Origin: a virus
Taxonomy: Duplodnaviria > Heunggongvirae > Uroviricota > Caudoviricetes
DNA length: 34,565 bases
Direction: 5' to 3' (one strand)
Virus record (IMG/VR): IMGVR_UViG_2537562189_000007
The stretch's first letter is position 1; each line of letters starts with the position of its first letter. The translations under genes and the position numbers were made by a program. The notes beneath the pieces were generated by a model. The model searched no databases. It had not been told where the DNA came from and was given only the letters and a program-made list of their open reading frames with translations. This document shows positions 17,398 to 23,163 of this stretch, in pieces.

Positions 17398-17427
17398 GCA
17401 TGTAAAAAGGCTCCTGCGATGAGGAGC
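17397..17427 (-). terminator. Intrinsic terminator (minus strand)
   Basis: Minus strand AGGCTCCTcatcgcAGGAGCCT (8-bp stem) followed by TTTTT; back-to-back with the plus-strand terminator. Confidence 0.5.
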
Positions 17428-17456
17428 CTGGATATATGCCTAATCTCTGTATACAG

Positions 17457-17650
17457 CATGATGCCGGGTGCCTCCCGGTGAATTCTGCAATGACCAGACA
17501 GAATCCGCAACTTGCCTATACAATACGCAACCAAACATCTGTCATTATGCCCCTCCGCTCAGGGGGATTCATCATGCAGGATTTTTTTAACAAATGCTCA
17601 GCCAGACAGGCAACCGTCAACTGACTGAATTGTGAGTGATTTAACATTTC
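17457..17650. repeat. Tandem direct repeat, copy 1 (period ~269 bp)
   Basis: Shares with copy 2 the blocks catg(a/g)tgccgggtgcctcccggtga, atgcccctccgc(t/a)cagggggattca(t/c)catgc and ttttaacaaat(g/a)ctcag...gacaggcaac(c/t)gtcaactgactgaattgtgag; the middle ~70 bp is diverged. Confidence 0.6.
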
Positions 17651-17674
17651 ACTGCCCGGTGCCTTCCCCTCATT

Positions 17675-17697
17675 AAAAAGCCCCTCCGGAGAGGGGC
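17675..17697 (-). terminator. Intrinsic terminator between the two repeat copies
   Basis: Palindrome GCCCCTCcggaGAGGGGC preceded on the plus strand by AAAAA, so the minus strand has hairpin plus TTTTT. Confidence 0.55.
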
Positions 17698-17725
17698 TAA
17701 AGCCGCGTATCTGTATCATCATGCG

Positions 17726-17916
17726 CATGGTGCCGGGTGCCTCCCGGTGAGTTCAGTATCAGCACCTGAACCCGCACCAGATAAGGGATATAACCAACCA
17801 CCTGTCGCTGATATGCCCCTCCGCACAGGGGGATTCACCATGCCAGTTTCTTTTAACAAATACTCAGTCTGACAGGCAACTGTCAACTGACTGAATTGTG
17901 AGACATTTAAAATTTT
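17726..17916. repeat. Tandem direct repeat, copy 2
   Basis: See copy 1; begins 269 bp after it with the same conserved blocks. Confidence 0.6.
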
Positions 17917-18005: not shown

Positions 18006-18082
18006 TGGCGCGTTGTACTGGATTCGAACCAGTGACCGATTGCTTAGAAGGCAATTGCTCTGTCCGGCTGAGCTAACAACGC
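18006..18082 (-). tRNA. argO: tRNA-Arg (anticodon UCU)
   Basis: Minus strand folds as a 77-nt cloverleaf GCGTTGT/ACAACGC acceptor, anticodon loop CUUCUAA, T-loop GGTTCGAATCC, encoded CCA. Confidence 0.8.
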
Positions 18083-18095
18083 TGAATACCGATAA

Positions 18096-18172
18096 TGGAC
18101 CGCCATCGAGGACTCGAACCCCGCGCAACCAGCTTCGAAGGCTGACGCTCTATCCCGATGAGCTAATGGCGG
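18096..18172 (-). tRNA. argN: tRNA-Arg (anticodon UCG)
   Basis: 77-nt cloverleaf with acceptor CCGCCAT/ATGGCGG, anticodon loop CUUCGAA, T-loop GGTTCGAGTCC, encoded CCA. Gene symbol by synteny with the ileZ-argN-argO cluster. Confidence 0.7.
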
Positions 18173-18181
18173 TATGTGATA

Positions 18182-18257
18182 TGGTGGCCCTTGCTGGATT
18201 TGAACCAGCGACCTGGCGATTATGAGTCGCTCGCTCTCACCACTGAGCTAAAGGGCC
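18182..18257 (-). tRNA. ileZ: tRNA with CAU anticodon, ileX-like (tRNA-Ile2; Met not excluded)
   Basis: 76-nt cloverleaf GGCCCTT...AAGGGCC-A-CCA, anticodon loop CUCAUAA; overall close to E. coli ileX as recalled. Confidence 0.65.
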
Positions 18258-18297: not shown

Positions 18298-19356
18298 TCA
18301 TCCGTTCTGACTGGCTAAATCCTGAACTTCCCTGACCGTCTGCTCAAAACGTTCAGTCTCCAGCTCAACACCAGTTGCACGACGCCCCAGTGCCATCGCG
18401 GCTTTGGCTGTCGAACCCGACCCCATGAAAAAATCTGCAACCAGGTCCCCCGGACGACTGCTCGCGCTGATTATCTGCTGCAGCATTTCTGCCGGTTTTT
18501 CGCACGGATGTTTCCCGGGATAGTACTGCACCGGTTTATGCGTCCACACATCGGTGTACGGCACCTGCGCCGTCACGCCAAAATACCGCCGCTGATGCTT
18601 ATATTCACTCTGCAGTTCCGCATACTGCCGGTTCAGTGAAGTATACGTCTCCAGCAGCTGGTGGTGGGGCTTCTCCAGTTCACCCCGCTGATGCTTCTCT
18701 TCTGCCACCCGGGCAAACAGCGCCTGTAATTTCAGATAATCACTTTCGTTCGGCAGTTGCCACTGACTGGCACTGAACCAGTGCGACACCATGTTTTTCT
18801 TTCCTGTGGCATCCACTATCTGTTTTGCCGTTATCCCCAGGGCAGCACGCGCATCACGAAAGTAAGCAATCAGCGGAGCCATCACATGCTGTTTCAGTGC
18901 CCTGCCCTTCGCCTCATACCCGGCATCTTTCGGACGATACGGCCCCTGATAATGTTCCGCGAACAGAATGCGCTCTGTGGCGGGGAAATACGCCCTCAGG
19001 CTTTCCTTGTTGCACCCGTTCCAGCGTCCGGACGGCTTCGCCCAGATAATATGGTTCAGCACACTGAAGCGTTCACGCATCATGATTTCAATGTCAGATG
19101 CCAGGCGATGGCCACAGAACAGGTAAAGACTTCCGGCAGGTTTCAGCACCCGCCAGAACTGCGCAAGACACTGGTCCAGCCACTTCAGGTAATCATCGTC
19201 GCCCTTCCACTGGTTATCCCAGCCCTCAGGCTTCACTTTAAAGTACGGCGGATCCGTGACTATCAGGTCAACAGAATTTTCGGGTAACGACCGGATAAAT
19301 TCCAGGCAGTCGGCGTTGATTAACTCACAACTGGATATTTTTACAGTGTTAAACAT
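18298..19356 (-). CDS. DNA methyltransferase (N6-adenine/N4-cytosine, beta class)
   Basis: 352 aa with motif IV DPPY near the N-terminus (LIVTDPPY) and AdoMet motif I near the C-terminus (DFFMGSGST). Confidence 0.85.
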   Translation of the reverse strand: MFNTVKISSCELINADCLEFIRSLPENSVDLIVTDPPYFKVKPEGWDNQWKGDDDYLKWLDQCLAQFWRVLKPAGSLYLFCGHRLASDIEIMMRERFSVLNHIIWAKPSGRWNGCNKESLRAYFPATERILFAEHYQGPYRPKDAGYEAKGRALKQHVMAPLIAYFRDARAALGITAKQIVDATGKKNMVSHWFSASQWQLPNESDYLKLQALFARVAEEKHQRGELEKPHHQLLETYTSLNRQYAELQSEYKHQRRYFGVTAQVPYTDVWTHKPVQYYPGKHPCEKPAEMLQQIISASSRPGDLVADFFMGSGSTAKAAMALGRRATGVELETERFEQTVREVQDLASQNG

Positions 19357-19492
19357 GGATCATTAAGCCTGTCTCTGATAGGCTCATTCTGCTTTTGCGC
19401 AAAGCAGTGGGCCTGAGGTTTGCTTGTGATCCAGACGCATGAGCAGATGGCTGGTGAGTGCCCCTAACACCCACCAGCCGCCCATTTACCAC

Positions 19493-19516
19493 AAATAAAA
19501 AAGCCTTCATGACTGA
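19493..19516 (-). terminator. Intrinsic terminator after the 77-aa ORF
   Basis: Minus strand GCCTTCAgtcaTGAAGGC followed by TTTTTT. Confidence 0.45.
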
Positions 19517-19740
19517 AGGCGTCTGTAACAACCGAACTGATAGTCTGCCAGACCCGCCATAACAAGCTGGGTCAGTATTAACTGGCAGCGTTCGCGTGAA
19601 AGGTAAGTATTCTGCGCAATCTCCCCGACTGTCGCCGGTTCGGTGACGCTTAATTCATTAAACACCACTCTGGCGGTTTCGGTCATATCCTGCTGTTTCA
19701 GCATGTCTTTTTCCCTTTTCCGGTTAACGTGACACACCAA
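19507..19740 (-). CDS. Hypothetical small protein, possible winged-helix
   Basis: 77-aa ORF (likely start MLKQQDMTETARVVFNEL...) between the candidate tR' and the methyltransferase. Confidence 0.35.
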   Translation of the reverse strand: MVCHVNRKREKDMLKQQDMTETARVVFNELSVTEPATVGEIAQNTYLSRERCQLILTQLVMAGLADYQFGCYRRLQS

Positions 19741-19826
19741 TAACTCTTGTCAAAAAAGCCAGCAAGCTGAAAGACCGGTATTAATAACCACCTGCACATT
19801 TTATGTACTGGCGTGATTTCAGTCAT

Positions 19827-19851
19827 AAAAAAACCCGCCTGGCGACGGGTG
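19827..19851 (-). terminator. Candidate tR' intrinsic terminator
   Basis: Minus strand CACCCGTCGCCAGGCGGG followed by TTTTTTT, about 70 nt downstream of the candidate late promoter. Confidence 0.5.
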
Positions 19852-19896
19852 TAAAAATCTTCTAACGTCAGGCATAAAACGCCCATCGTTAGGGCA

Positions 19897-19924
19897 AATT
19901 TACCACAGATTCGGGAAAAATCAA
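19897..19924 (-). promoter_or_regulatory. Candidate late promoter pR' (with qut region)
   Basis: Minus strand TTGATT - 16 nt - TGGTAAATT (extended -10 like) directly downstream of the Q-like gene stop. Confidence 0.35.
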
Positions 19925-19929
19925 CAAAG

Positions 19930-20751
19930 CTATCTGGTCACCTTTTTCAGTTGTTGTTCTGCCCATGCTTCTTCAATATCAAACTGCACCACCAGCGTAT
20001 CGTAAAAACGTTTAACTGTTTTTTTCCATGTATCAAGAGATATGGCATCGGTTACATTACATATGGCATTAAATGCCTCCGTTGAAGGTAATCTTTCATA
20101 GCCACGCCCACCACAACGCTGGCAGTTTCTGAAAACCGGCACACCCTGTTTTTCCGACTCTTCACGATGAATGGCAACACCGCGCCCACGACAATCTTTA
20201 CAGGCGGTGGAAACCTCCCCCTTTCCGCCACACTCCGGACAGGCAACTTTTACCACCTCCCTGACTTTTTTCCATTCCTCCCAGTAAGACGGATACACGC
20301 CTTTTGTGCACTTTGCCCACACTGGCGGCTTACCATCCGGATACTGGATCTTGTTTGTAAAAACCTCGCTTTCAATAAATTTTTTTCCGTGACAGCAGGG
20401 GCACTGTTTTTTGCTCGCCGCGCTACGGGCATAATCTTCAAACGCATACGAAGCCATAATACGCATCACTGCCGGTTTTATTTCTGCCGGGAGTTTTCTT
20501 AACGCCGCCACGCGATCACACCGACTGAGTGCATATTCTGTCAGCAATTCTGTTGCCCGCTCTCTGTCATTCATACTAATGCCCATTCTCCCAAGGAACG
20601 CAGAAAACCCCATCTCAGCCCGATTCTGTGTCATGCCCTGCGCGGCCATCACATCAGTGATACTCAGCGCATCTTTTGACGTTGAGGCCGATGCATCAGT
20701 CAGGCCGGGGGATTTTGGGGAGTAGTATTTCGGTAAATCTTCCAGTTTCAT
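19930..20751 (-). CDS. Putative late antiterminator Q-like protein with DnaJ-type zinc-finger repeats
   Basis: 273 aa; position (after rusA and DUF968, before pR'/tR'-like elements and the late genes) matches Q; three CxxCxGxG repeats (CPECGGKG, CKDCRGRG, CQRCGGRG) plus CPCCHG. Confidence 0.55.
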   Translation of the reverse strand: MKLEDLPKYYSPKSPGLTDASASTSKDALSITDVMAAQGMTQNRAEMGFSAFLGRMGISMNDRERATELLTEYALSRCDRVAALRKLPAEIKPAVMRIMASYAFEDYARSAASKKQCPCCHGKKFIESEVFTNKIQYPDGKPPVWAKCTKGVYPSYWEEWKKVREVVKVACPECGGKGEVSTACKDCRGRGVAIHREESEKQGVPVFRNCQRCGGRGYERLPSTEAFNAICNVTDAISLDTWKKTVKRFYDTLVVQFDIEEAWAEQQLKKVTR

Positions 20752-21122
20752 TTTTTGACCTGCCCTTCAAGCATTATGGGGTAAATCTTCACCCCCAGAC
20801 GTCCACCAGATACTGGCTGACCACGTACAATATTGATTTCATCAAACTGTTCATCGTCGATAAGCAGTCCCGCATGCGTCAGCGCATCCAGCGGTGCTTT
20901 CAGAATGTTGTCCAGGTCACGACGACGCTTATCCGGTGGCTCTGCAATAATTTTTATTGCCAGCCGTCCGGACAGGCTTAATTTCAGTCGCTGCTGGCGA
21001 ACAATAAACGCCACTGCCCGGCGATAACGCTCCCCGGCTTTTGATACAAAATATGTGCTGCCACGACGTCGCCAGTAAGTATTCACCGTCGGCGGGTAAG
21101 GCAAAACAAACTCTATACACAT
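20748..21122 (-). CDS. rusA: Holliday junction resolvase RusA
   Basis: RusA-like sequence (LPYPPTVNTYW..., PPDKRRRDLDNILKAPLDALTHAGLLIDDEQ); ATG at 21122 preceded by AAGGGGGG. Confidence 0.8.
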   Translation of the reverse strand: MCIEFVLPYPPTVNTYWRRRGSTYFVSKAGERYRRAVAFIVRQQRLKLSLSGRLAIKIIAEPPDKRRRDLDNILKAPLDALTHAGLLIDDEQFDEINIVRGQPVSGGRLGVKIYPIMLEGQVKK

Positions 21123-21135
21123 CAATACCCCCCTT

Positions 21136-22185
21136 TTACCCAAGCACACCGGTTGCAAAGGCGTGATCAAGAAAACGAAAAATTAAATCAACCTGAGAAC
21201 CATGCTTTTCTTCGAACGCCAGCGGATCCGCATGAAGCTCGTTATGATGCTCCCGACACAGCGGTAGCGTGAAAATATCGTGGGCTTTTGTTCCCATTCC
21301 CCCCTGACCATGACCAATCAGGTGATGCGGATCGTCAGCTGGCTTACCACAACACGCACACGGCTGTGTCTTTACCCAGCGCGTGTATTTCTCATTAACC
21401 CAACGGCGATGTTTAGGCCGCTTCATAAACGATTCAGGAGACTCCGGATCAACGGCGATACTGGCAACCGTTTTTTTCTGTGGTGGATTTTGTTGCTGGT
21501 GGACGTGAAGTGGCAGCGCAATATTTTTTGTGCGCTGCTTCAGTATGCTGATGGCTGTCTGTTCTCCCGGTACGATGTCACTCTCACGGTATACGGAGCG
21601 GATTTTTTCCACCGGTAATCCCAGCGAACGACGCGCTACTGCCTCAGGTAGTGCATCCACCACCTGATTGCAGGCCGCCCACCAGGATAATTCGGCCAGC
21701 GATAACTCCCTCTCCTGCGTACCGTTTATTGCGTGACGTATAACATCAATCATCCAGACTGCCAGATTCTGCTGAGCAAGTTGATCGAGTGATTCTGATG
21801 TCTGGTCGCGCAGCTGGTTGTCACAGTGCCAGCACAACACCATCGCGCCGGTACCGTAACGGTGAATGACGGTTTCGCTGTGATGATAATCGCCGTGTGG
21901 CCACTGGCAGGATTTCACGTGACGTAATAACCAGTCAGACAGTGCACCTGCACCACCTGCTGCACGAATAACCCGCTCATCGCTGAAAAATGGCAGTAAT
22001 GTTTTATCCTCTGCCAGCGGCTGGCGAACGGCAGGAACGACTCCGGACGGCAGACCGCGCATGTTTTTCGGTTCCGGCTCCACCAATATTCTGCCGTTAT
22101 GGAATGCTGACATTGATTCACGGCCCGGCTTAAGGAGCACCATCCCGAGTTCCGGTACCAGAACAGGTCGAAGTAATACCCGCAC
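21136..22185 (-). CDS. DUF968-family phage protein with C-terminal HNH-like zinc motif
   Basis: 349 aa; C-terminus CACCGKPADDPHHLIGHGQGGMGTKAHDIFTLPLCREHHNELH; GTG start preceded by GGAGG. Confidence 0.6.
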   Translation of the reverse strand: MRVLLRPVLVPELGMVLLKPGRESMSAFHNGRILVEPEPKNMRGLPSGVVPAVRQPLAEDKTLLPFFSDERVIRAAGGAGALSDWLLRHVKSCQWPHGDYHHSETVIHRYGTGAMVLCWHCDNQLRDQTSESLDQLAQQNLAVWMIDVIRHAINGTQERELSLAELSWWAACNQVVDALPEAVARRSLGLPVEKIRSVYRESDIVPGEQTAISILKQRTKNIALPLHVHQQQNPPQKKTVASIAVDPESPESFMKRPKHRRWVNEKYTRWVKTQPCACCGKPADDPHHLIGHGQGGMGTKAHDIFTLPLCREHHNELHADPLAFEEKHGSQVDLIFRFLDHAFATGVLG

Positions 22186-22863: not shown

Positions 22864-23163
22864 ATGACATATGAAGTCATCATTACTCCTGAGGCCGAAC
22901 AACAAATAATCAACCTGCACAGATATATAACGGAGAAAGCAGGGAACATCATTGCTGACAATTATGCCAATGCGCTTCTTGATTATCTTGATGGGTTTTC
23001 TACATTCCCGCATCGGGGCAATAAACGCGATGATATTCGCCAGGGGATGCGGGTAACTCATTTCCGCCACAGAACGATTATTGCTTTTGCCGTTGATGGC
23101 AGAAAAGTCTTTATTGTCGGTATCTATCATGGTGGGCAAAGTTATGAAACCGATTTCTTATAA
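22864..23163 (+). CDS. parE: ParE/RelE-family toxin
   Basis: 99 aa, starts 5 nt after ParD stop; ParE-like sequence (VIITPEAEQQIINLHRYI...FIVGIYHGGQ). Confidence 0.75.
   Translation: MTYEVIITPEAEQQIINLHRYITEKAGNIIADNYANALLDYLDGFSTFPHRGNKRDDIRQGMRVTHFRHRTIIAFAVDGRKVFIVGIYHGGQSYETDFL

Follow-up and report, generated by a model that had tools for sequence, protein, structure and literature searches.

Why should a ten-base motif (TGTGGTAAAT) stand twice between the late antiterminator gene and the DNA methyltransferase gene of a lambdoid prophage? The question arises from the window, by which we mean the whole 34.5-kb stretch of DNA that was analysed (IMG/VR virus record IMGVR_UViG_2537562189_000007, 34,565 nucleotides (nt), Caudoviricetes), and which holds exactly two copies of the motif, both on the minus strand (motif 1 at 19898-19907 and motif 2 at 19484-19493). 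The copies lie in the late region of the prophage, where all genes around them are on the minus strand, within the 573-nt spacer between the stop codon of the antiterminator gene Q and the start of the methyltransferase gene. An earlier note, made from the letters of this DNA alone, had taken the first copy for part of a late promoter followed by a terminator, as in the pR'/tR' arrangement of phage lambda, and the second for a possible duplicated Q-utilisation site (qut) or second late promoter. Our results suggest, as an explanation that we consider likely as a whole, that the locus combines a lambda-type pR'/tR' late control region with a deeply conserved, unannotated and folded leader RNA whose 5' edge is motif 2, and that the ten bases common to the two motifs are a coincidence in this lineage.

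The predicted late promoter and its terminators

The elements of the predicted promoter (site 1) are the following.

19919-19924, minus strand: -35 hexamer TTGATT of pR', aligning with lambda TTGACT and with TTGCAT of the SfV type
19898-19907, minus strand: motif 1, made of the last 5 nt of the promoter spacer and the first 5 nt of the -10 element
19897-19902, minus strand: -10 hexamer TAAATT, identical to that of lambda pR'
19885-19890, minus strand: AACGAT, ahead of GGG, the predicted transcript start (+1) and sigma70-dependent pause element, placed by homology to lambda

The stop codon of Q (19930-19932) lies 5 nt upstream of the -35 hexamer, and the sequence then reads TTGATT, 16 nt, TGG-TAAATT, TGCCCT and AACGATGGG, with a TG at -15/-14 (the extended -10 TG, included in the spacer part of motif 1) and 8 of 12 matches to the sigma70 consensus. 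For comparison, pR' in the lambda record is TTGACT-17-TAAATT-TGACTC-AACGATGGG, and the SfV type is TTGCAT-17-TAAGAT-TTTTCC-AACGATGGG. In a survey of what follows each lambda-Q-family gene in the fetched loci, the pattern of a -35, 16-17 nt, TAnnnT, 6 nt and AACGATGGG was recovered in about 30 distinct versions. Since the -10 hexamer, the 6-nt gap and AACGATGGG are shared with lambda, motif 1 would be the end of the spacer and the beginning of the pR' -10. The AACGAT of lambda has two roles, marking where the transcript starts and serving as the sigma70-dependent pause element (SDPE) at which Q loads. The lambda Q cassette and the role of the SDPE have been described (PMC9388147). Altogether, the identification of site 1 as a lambda-type pR' is strongly supported by these sequence matches, and the promoter-like element that the earlier note had placed directly after the Q-like stop codon is confirmed as TTGATT-16-TAAATT. 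Note that a terminator-like hairpin at 19880-19896 was rejected, as it straddles the predicted start site and cannot form in the pR' RNA.

Downstream of the promoter, the spacer holds two terminators and a small open reading frame (ORF).

19827-19850, minus strand: intrinsic terminator tR' (stem 19833-19850, T-run to 19827)
19827-19890, minus strand: short pR' RNA, predicted to end at tR' after about 63 nt and to contain a 5' stem-loop and the terminator hairpin
19507-19704, minus strand: small ORF of 65 codons for a TrmB-like winged-helix protein (PHROG 331, function unknown)
19493-19520, minus strand: terminator t2 (stem 19503-19520, T6AT3 to 19493)

The terminator expected after the promoter was indeed found: tR' has a 7-bp GC-rich stem, a 4-nt loop and a T7 tract (free energy -12.0 kcal/mol), is kept across phages with differing Q types, and has an orthologue in SfV that carries a terminator annotation. 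The predicted pR' RNA folds at -21.3 kcal/mol (z -3.1), has no Rfam match, and by its architecture would be an analogue of lambda 6S RNA and of StxS. HnrS, a 66-nt RNA from a prophage late region, was considered as its identity and dropped: HnrS must pair with AGAAG, which the pR' RNA itself contains, so the pR' RNA is unlikely to be HnrS, a judgement resting on this pairing and not on a comparison with the HnrS sequence itself. The second terminator claimed ahead of motif 2 also proved real, t2 being a hairpin of 7 bp and a 4-nt loop (GCCTTCA-GTCA-TGAAGGC, -11.2 kcal/mol) followed by TTTTTTATTT and holding the stop codon of the small ORF. It is a strong terminator in the lineage of the window, while among distinct relatives the hairpin is present in 58 of 66 and the U-rich tract in only 16 of 66. 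In 64 of 72 viral loci the leader is directly preceded by the small winged-helix ORF, which has no homology to lambda orf-64. Two candidates for a promoter of its own were discarded. One is ATGACT-17-TAAAAT (19798-19826, minus strand, 9/12), which adjoins the 3' side of tR' and is specific to the window, the closest relatives reading CAGTAAACGCGCTGG at this place; the other is TTGACA at 19748-19753, which lacks a -10 partner.

A conserved and folded leader RNA begins at motif 2

Between the end of t2 and the start codon of the methylase lies a leader of about 140 nt, with the following parts.

19354-19498, minus strand: conserved structured late-leader RNA (alignment, covariation, fold and covariance model)
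19484-19493, minus strand: motif 2, TGTGGTAAAT, in the 5' single-stranded/P0 segment of the leader; family consensus YTGTGRAAATGGGCGG
19439-19485, minus strand: hairpin D1, about 20 bp with an internal loop
19471-19478, minus strand: Chi sequence GCTGGTGG, in the 5' strand of hairpin D1
19357-19432, minus strand: compound hairpin D2, whose 3' strand adjoins the methylase AUG
18298-19356, minus strand: methyltransferase gene (M.EcoGII-family beta-class N6-adenine DNA methyltransferase, Pfam PF01555)

Homologous leaders were gathered by fetching loci through the methylase protein. The leader is conserved at the nucleotide level in Escherichia, Klebsiella, Enterobacter, Salmonella, Erwinia, Mixta, Providencia and Proteus, with a mean column identity of 83% over 48 distinct sequences, and its nucleotide identity to the window (80%) exceeds that of the methylase coding sequence (72%). 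This conservation is not that of a coding sequence, because frame-shifting insertions and deletions (indels) occur and the ORF opened by its AUG has 7, 33, 18, 44 or other numbers of codons. A 15-mer from the leader was found in 80 viral contigs, with the methylase at a fixed distance of +76 nt in 72 of them, and the covariance model built from the alignment matched the window only once, at 19354-19498 (128.8 bits). No match was obtained in Rfam 15, where the best hits (17-18 bits, to microRNA and P26 models with thresholds of 36-100) are noise, and no published annotation of the leader was found, the stretch being unannotated in every record examined.

The fold of the leader is supported by features of the alignment and of the individual sequences. 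Its minimum free energy in the window is -58.2 kcal/mol (z -4.7), and the two large hairpins recur in individually folded relatives. Over the alignment, 93% of the cells of the structure are paired, against 31-43% when the partners are slid, and 14 pairs are changed on both sides, against 5.4 ± 1.5 in shuffles (a value reached in 0 of 500). G-U pairs are frequent in the helices and, as they correspond to A-C mismatches on the other strand, they tie the structure to the sense strand. In addition, an alternative helix, in which UUCGCU of segment 2 pairs with AGCGAA of segment 3, excludes helices 1:2 and 3:4; as an example, its pair 57-81 is C-G in 23 sequences, A-U in 9, U-A in 8 and U-G in 4, and both competing sets of helices show covariation. 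Motif 2 itself can take part in pairing, its UGUGR being complementary to an invariant UCACA (93.6% of cells paired, with one-sided changes only), for which the lambda counterpart is CGUGA:UCACG. In the window, helix 2:3 would join 19436-19441 to 19418-19423, helix 3:4 would join 19421-19432 to 19357-19369, and UGUGG:UCACA would join 19489-19493 to 19425-19429. At the other end, the 3' strand of D2 stops two bases before the AUG of the methylase, a start codon without a Shine-Dalgarno (SD) sequence.

As a separate observation, a shorter leader of about 90 nt is found upstream of the methylase in Xenorhabdus and Photorhabdus (our loci L055-L086), where GGTGAAATGG and the first hairpin, often with Chi, are kept; this version is without the second domain, and the covariance model scores it at only 15-19 bits.

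Counterparts of the leader in lambda and P22

The covariance model also matches lambda at 45013-45140 (34.3 bits, with E 3e-8 when lambda was searched by itself and 6e-6 in a batch search), in an unannotated stretch between tR' and the holin gene S that folds at -50 kcal/mol (z -5.1). Overall, the element was found in 184 phage records including P22, where it occupies 38012-38126, between gene 23 and holin gene 13 (in our loci, the lambda element is 1214-1341 of L090 and the P22 element about 1201-1315 of L214). No hit was obtained in the DLP12 late region of E. coli K-12. Like the leader of the window, the lambda/P22 element lies after tR' and before the first late gene, and has GUGAAA-(N2)-GGG-Y-GGC, a long and compensated D1 hairpin, a UUUUGCCCGUG segment and GGUCACGAACAAAUC. 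A six-way alignment gave GUGAAA, GGG-Y-GGC, a fully compensated long hairpin, UUNUGCCCRUG and GRUCACRRRCAAAYC as the common features, and the pairing of D1 is kept despite wholesale change of its sequence. The lambda/P22 element differs in its 3' half, which is diverged and shorter, and in having neither the AUG nor Chi; moreover, it ends about 45-55 nt before the holin start, whereas the leader of the window adjoins the start codon. The leader element is older than its association with the methylase.

The hairpin of about 20 bp with an internal loop is the obvious candidate site for RNase III, and processing by this enzyme was reportedly described in lambda by Daniels and colleagues in 1988. 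No RNase III site is annotated in the lambda records NC_001416 and J02459.

Alternative readings of motif 2 and of the leader

The second copy of the motif does exist upstream of the methyltransferase, whose gene starts at 19356, and it lies a few bases away from the approximate place (19475-19490) given for it at first, its true position being 19484-19493. As a duplication, the repeat is not statistically compelling: among dinucleotide shuffles of the 573-nt spacer, 13% show a direct repeat of at least 10 nt and 0.9% show one that overlaps the -10 hexamer (a test posed post hoc), and the flanks of sites 1 and 2 share 12 of 50 bases (24%), which is the chance level. A duplicated Q-utilisation site would offer Q a second place to load on RNA polymerase, and the ten identical bases do fall on the part of pR' where the Q-binding spacer gives way to the -10. 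However, site 2 has no competent -35 (best match 3/6), no pause element of the AACGAT type within 30 nt, its sequence continuing downstream with GGGCGGCTGGTGG, no resemblance to the Q-binding spacer CCCGAATC and none of the family-wide qut signature of a -10, 6 nt and AACGATGGG. In addition, of 65 distinct orthologous leaders only 3, from the lineage of the window and from E. albertii, contain TGTGGTAAAT. The other 62, among them leaders that accompany the same Q type in other genera, read TGTGAAAAT (25 leaders), TGTGGAAAT (17), TGTGAAAT, TGTGGAAT and other variants with single-base indels. This reading is already contradicted by the sequence, and we give it next to no weight. The other proposal of the earlier note, a second late promoter, can be put in the form of a weak or activator-dependent extended -10 promoter, from which a methyltransferase RNA would start at the foot of hairpin D1 independently of pR'. 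Indeed, TG-n-GGTAAAT and TGTGAAAAT resemble an extended -10, the 3' 'AAT' is retained in nearly all variants of motif 2, the terminator just upstream would insulate such a promoter, the small winged-helix protein encoded just upstream could act as activator, and shuffles seldom yield a repeat that overlaps the pR' -10. Against this, the -35 remains at 3/6, the -10 hexamer would be TAAATG or GTAAAT (without T-7 or A-11), the indels of relatives move the TG relative to the hexamer, the promoter scan did not call motif 2, and the homologous place reads CGTGAAAGC in lambda and CGTGAAGAT in P22. Moreover, methylases of the M.EcoGII type are toxic when expressed and are not expressed in lysogens (PMC5778455), and the bases of motif 2 fit the conserved UGUGR:UCACA pairing of the RNA. 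A promoter at motif 2 was thus not borne out and we hold it to be unlikely.

Two further readings concern the leader and not the motif. If it were a translational attenuator, a peptide (MGGWWVL...) starting at the AUG that overlaps motif 2 would be translated and the passage of the ribosome would open the structure; all 65 methylase-type leaders have this AUG, 31 of them encode an ORF of 7 codons that stops in the D1 loop, and the 1:2, 2:3 and 3:4 layout of the helices resembles attenuators of the erm and trp type. However, the length and frame of the ORF vary as described above, no usable SD sequence precedes it, lambda reads AGCGGG in place of the AUG, and blocking segment 1 leaves D2 closed in the sequence of the window. 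The leader peptide was consequently rejected on its variable length and frame and on the missing AUG of lambda, and retains a very low probability. It might also be supposed that the conservation belongs to the DNA, as a Chi-centred recombination site or a protein-binding site. The window as a whole is rich in Chi (GCTGGTGG), with 14 sites against 1.5 expected (a number reached in 0 of 100 shuffles), and the Chi of D1 has the orientation of 11 of the 14, on the minus, late-gene sense strand (e.g., 19471-19478 and 19989-19996); the 5' strand of D1 (GGCTGGTGGGTG) is more constant than its partner strand, and mosaic junctions cluster 3' of Chi. Against a DNA element stand the many G-U pairs of the helices, with the strand dependence that they imply, the lambda, P22 and Proteus versions that keep the hairpin without Chi, and a conservation that extends about 100 nt beyond Chi with covarying helices. 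We consider this reading improbable, ranking it a little below the second promoter and above the leader peptide.

Proposed mechanism and the points that weigh against it

In the explanation that we prefer, lambda-type late control followed by a conserved leader RNA, a constitutive sigma70 pR' would fire right after the lambda-family Q gene. The first transcribed bases, AACGAT, would mimic a -10 element, so that RNA polymerase would pause while it still holds sigma. Q, sitting on the promoter spacer, would load at this pause. Without Q, transcription would stop at tR' (19827-19850) to give the RNA of about 63 nt, and leak-through past tR' would be caught by t2 (19493-19520). With Q, both terminators would be read through, as predicted by homology, and the transcript would extend over the small winged-helix ORF, the leader, the gene of the adenine methyltransferase (predicted to be toxic and non-specific) and those for three tRNAs, for lysis and for morphogenesis. 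Within this late RNA, our best guess is that the leader may serve as an RNase III processing or stability site, a function that lambda and P22 would have in common with the window. Where a methylase follows, the leader may also mask the start codon and keep the toxic enzyme low, since the 3' strand of D2 would cover the bases just before the SD-less AUG; the alternative pairings (segments 2:3 or UGUGR:UCACA) would release this strand. Its probable function is RNase III processing or stability of the late RNA, a translational gate on the methylase, or both.

Several observations weigh against this explanation or limit it. On the side of the promoter, pR' was not called by a generic promoter scan (8/12, with a threshold of 9), the Q-binding element predicted for the enlarged-arm Q of the window differs from that of lambda, and the start site, the pause, the termination efficiency and the Q dependence all rest on homology. 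On the side of the leader, the element of lambda and P22 ends about 45-55 nt before the holin start, so masking of a start codon could not be its universal function. Lambda 45013-45140 may possibly correspond to the published RNase III site. In constrained folding, the structure of one relative (L014) switched when segment 1 was blocked and that of the window did not, which makes a switch plausible and unproven. Finally, the leader is largely invariant and many of its compensatory changes come from few lineages (Proteus/Providencia, lambda and P22), so that the covariation events are few and fall among related sequences.

The promoter/terminator pair is textbook lambda biology in a new allele, and its value is mainly for annotation. 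Note that the same module controls Shiga-toxin (Stx) expression in related phages, the exact Q, pR' and leader being found upstream of stx2 in phage Stx2_EH1910. The part worth following up is the unannotated and deeply conserved leader RNA common to lambda and P22. More tentatively, and with less confidence than for the explanation as a whole, we suggest that it may represent an undescribed class of structured RNA, a lambdoid 'late-leader element' (lambda, P22, SfV, Stx phages and many Enterobacterales prophages) that would sit between the late terminators and the first late gene, with motif 2 in its first strand and with competing helices that, in phages carrying the methylase, would gate its translation and/or direct RNase III processing. 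If the leader controls late-RNA processing or methylase expression, it would add a further layer of late-gene and anti-restriction control in well-studied phages, and its role is directly testable in lambda.

The Q protein and the methyltransferase

The gene upstream of pR' encodes the antiterminator.

19930-20751, minus strand: Q antiterminator gene, 273 amino acids (aa), lambda-Q family (ORF; Pfam PF03589; PDB 7UBM)

The protein matches Pfam PF03589 (3.8e-51) and, among solved structures, lambda Q (7UBM, E 2.5e-41), with residues 1-113 and 182-273 aligned. A Q21-type direct-repeat Q-binding site, which came from reading PF03589 as the Q21 family, was dropped after the PDB search pointed to a lambda-Q-like protein. 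Between the aligned parts stands an insert of about 68 aa (residues 114-181) with extra CxxC/CxxCxGxG motifs, in which a DnaJ-type zinc finger scored below threshold. The insert falls at the place of the zinc-ribbon 'arm' of lambda Q (residues 114-152), which contacts the Q-binding element (PMC9388147). The promoter spacer, corresponding to the zone bound by lambda Q, varies with the Q subtype: TTTCCCGAATCTGTGG is kept with the Q of the window (L002, L009, L011 and L101), and other subtypes differ.

At the other end of the spacer, the methylase is 99% identical to that of phage 1720a-02, which has been named as very similar to M.EcoGII (PMC5778455). The methylase of the window belongs to the M.EcoGII family, and non-specific adenine methylation is predicted for it from its sequence.

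Comparison with known systems

The window shares with lambda pR'/qut/tR' a Q gene that ends just ahead of the promoter, a TAAATT -10 placed 6 nt from AACGATGGG, an intrinsic terminator, which in the window too would give a short constitutive RNA, and late genes downstream. The two differ in the sequence of the Q-binding spacer and in the length of the promoter spacer (17 nt in lambda and 16 nt in the window), and the Q of the window carries the zinc-finger insert of about 68 aa in its DNA-binding arm, unlike lambda Q. In the window, tR' is about 40 nt downstream, compared with about 190 nt in lambda, and the predicted RNA is therefore about 63 nt long, against roughly 190 nt for lambda 6S RNA. 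A second terminator, a small ORF, the methylase and tRNAs are also interposed before the lysis genes, unlike in lambda.

The SfV, Stx2 and cdtI phages are closer, with the same order of Q, terminator, orf47 and DNA methyltransferase (orf48), and with orthologous tR', small ORF, leader and methylase (72-96% nucleotide identity). They differ in having either a 250-aa Q with TTGCAT-17-TAAGAT or unrelated Q types of 120-126 aa, in a motif 2 that reads TGTGAAAAT, and in a poorer U-tract of t2. A constitutive late promoter with a nearby terminator that gives an abundant short RNA with a hairpin and U-tail is known from StxS and 6S (PMC7547250). StxS, which is 258 nt long, processed to 74 nt and driven by another Q/pR' type, is likened to the predicted RNA of the window by its architecture.

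Translational control of modification and methylase genes is known from Mu com-mom and from erm-type systems. By analogy, the window also has a toxic modification gene behind a small ORF and an RNA structure that would cover the start, with mutually exclusive helices. There is no homology, however, the small protein of the window is a winged-helix protein and not a zinc-finger RNA binder, and control by a leader peptide is not supported for its leader.

Gene order, mosaicism and neighbouring features

Around the control region, the remaining genes of the late region are arranged as follows in the direction of transcription.

21136-22185, minus strand: DUF968 gene, the first in 5' to 3' order
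20748-21170, minus strand: rusA, between the DUF968 gene and Q
between the Q stop codon and the methyltransferase start, minus strand: the 573-nt spacer with both motifs
18006-18257, minus strand: three tRNAs, downstream of the methyltransferase gene
beyond the tRNAs and two copies of the small RNA (sRNA) STnc100, minus strand: nanS-p-like esterase gene

This gene order is the late-region layout of lambdoid and Stx prophages. Indeed, phage Stx2_EH1910 has the same Q, spacer, methylase and tRNAs, followed by stx2AB. Among 5426 complete E. coli genomes, 2368 have a match to the 573-nt spacer, as do 64 phage records.

The module is mosaic. The phages phiP27, 1720a-02 and cdtI, together with Stx2a and Stx2c phages, are common with the window from the tR' hairpin onward and have unrelated Q genes and promoters, with a junction at about 19854, just upstream of the hairpin. 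Conversely, one E. coli prophage has the same Q, pR' and tR' and then runs straight into tRNAs. Both patterns of exchange show that Q and pR' form one module and the downstream part another, with tR' as the point at which the two meet. A second recurrent junction, seen for example in several E. coli genomes and in phage PhiR5_1, lies at about 19467, 4 nt 3' of the Chi of the leader. Immediately behind tR', where GCAGGTGG stands in the window, relatives have an additional Chi.

Some features of the neighbourhood were recorded in passing. The first of the three tRNAs (18182-18257, minus strand) is called Met (CAT) by ARAGORN, and its orthologues in phiP27 and in an E. coli prophage are annotated as tRNA-Ile (ileZ-like), so that it is probably an Ile tRNA modified with lysidine. 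Two tandem members of the STnc100 sRNA family follow on the minus strand (17398-17606 and 17668-17872, with 183 and 146 bits), between the tRNAs and the nanS-p-like esterase gene, which is the exact place of stx2AB in the otherwise collinear Stx2_EH1910. Finally, two adjacent small ORFs lie on the plus strand, opposite to the phage genes (22538-22858, 106 aa, and 22864-23163, 99 aa); judged by eye from the ORF list, the pair looks like an antitoxin and a toxin (ribbon-helix-helix-like and ParE/RelE-like).

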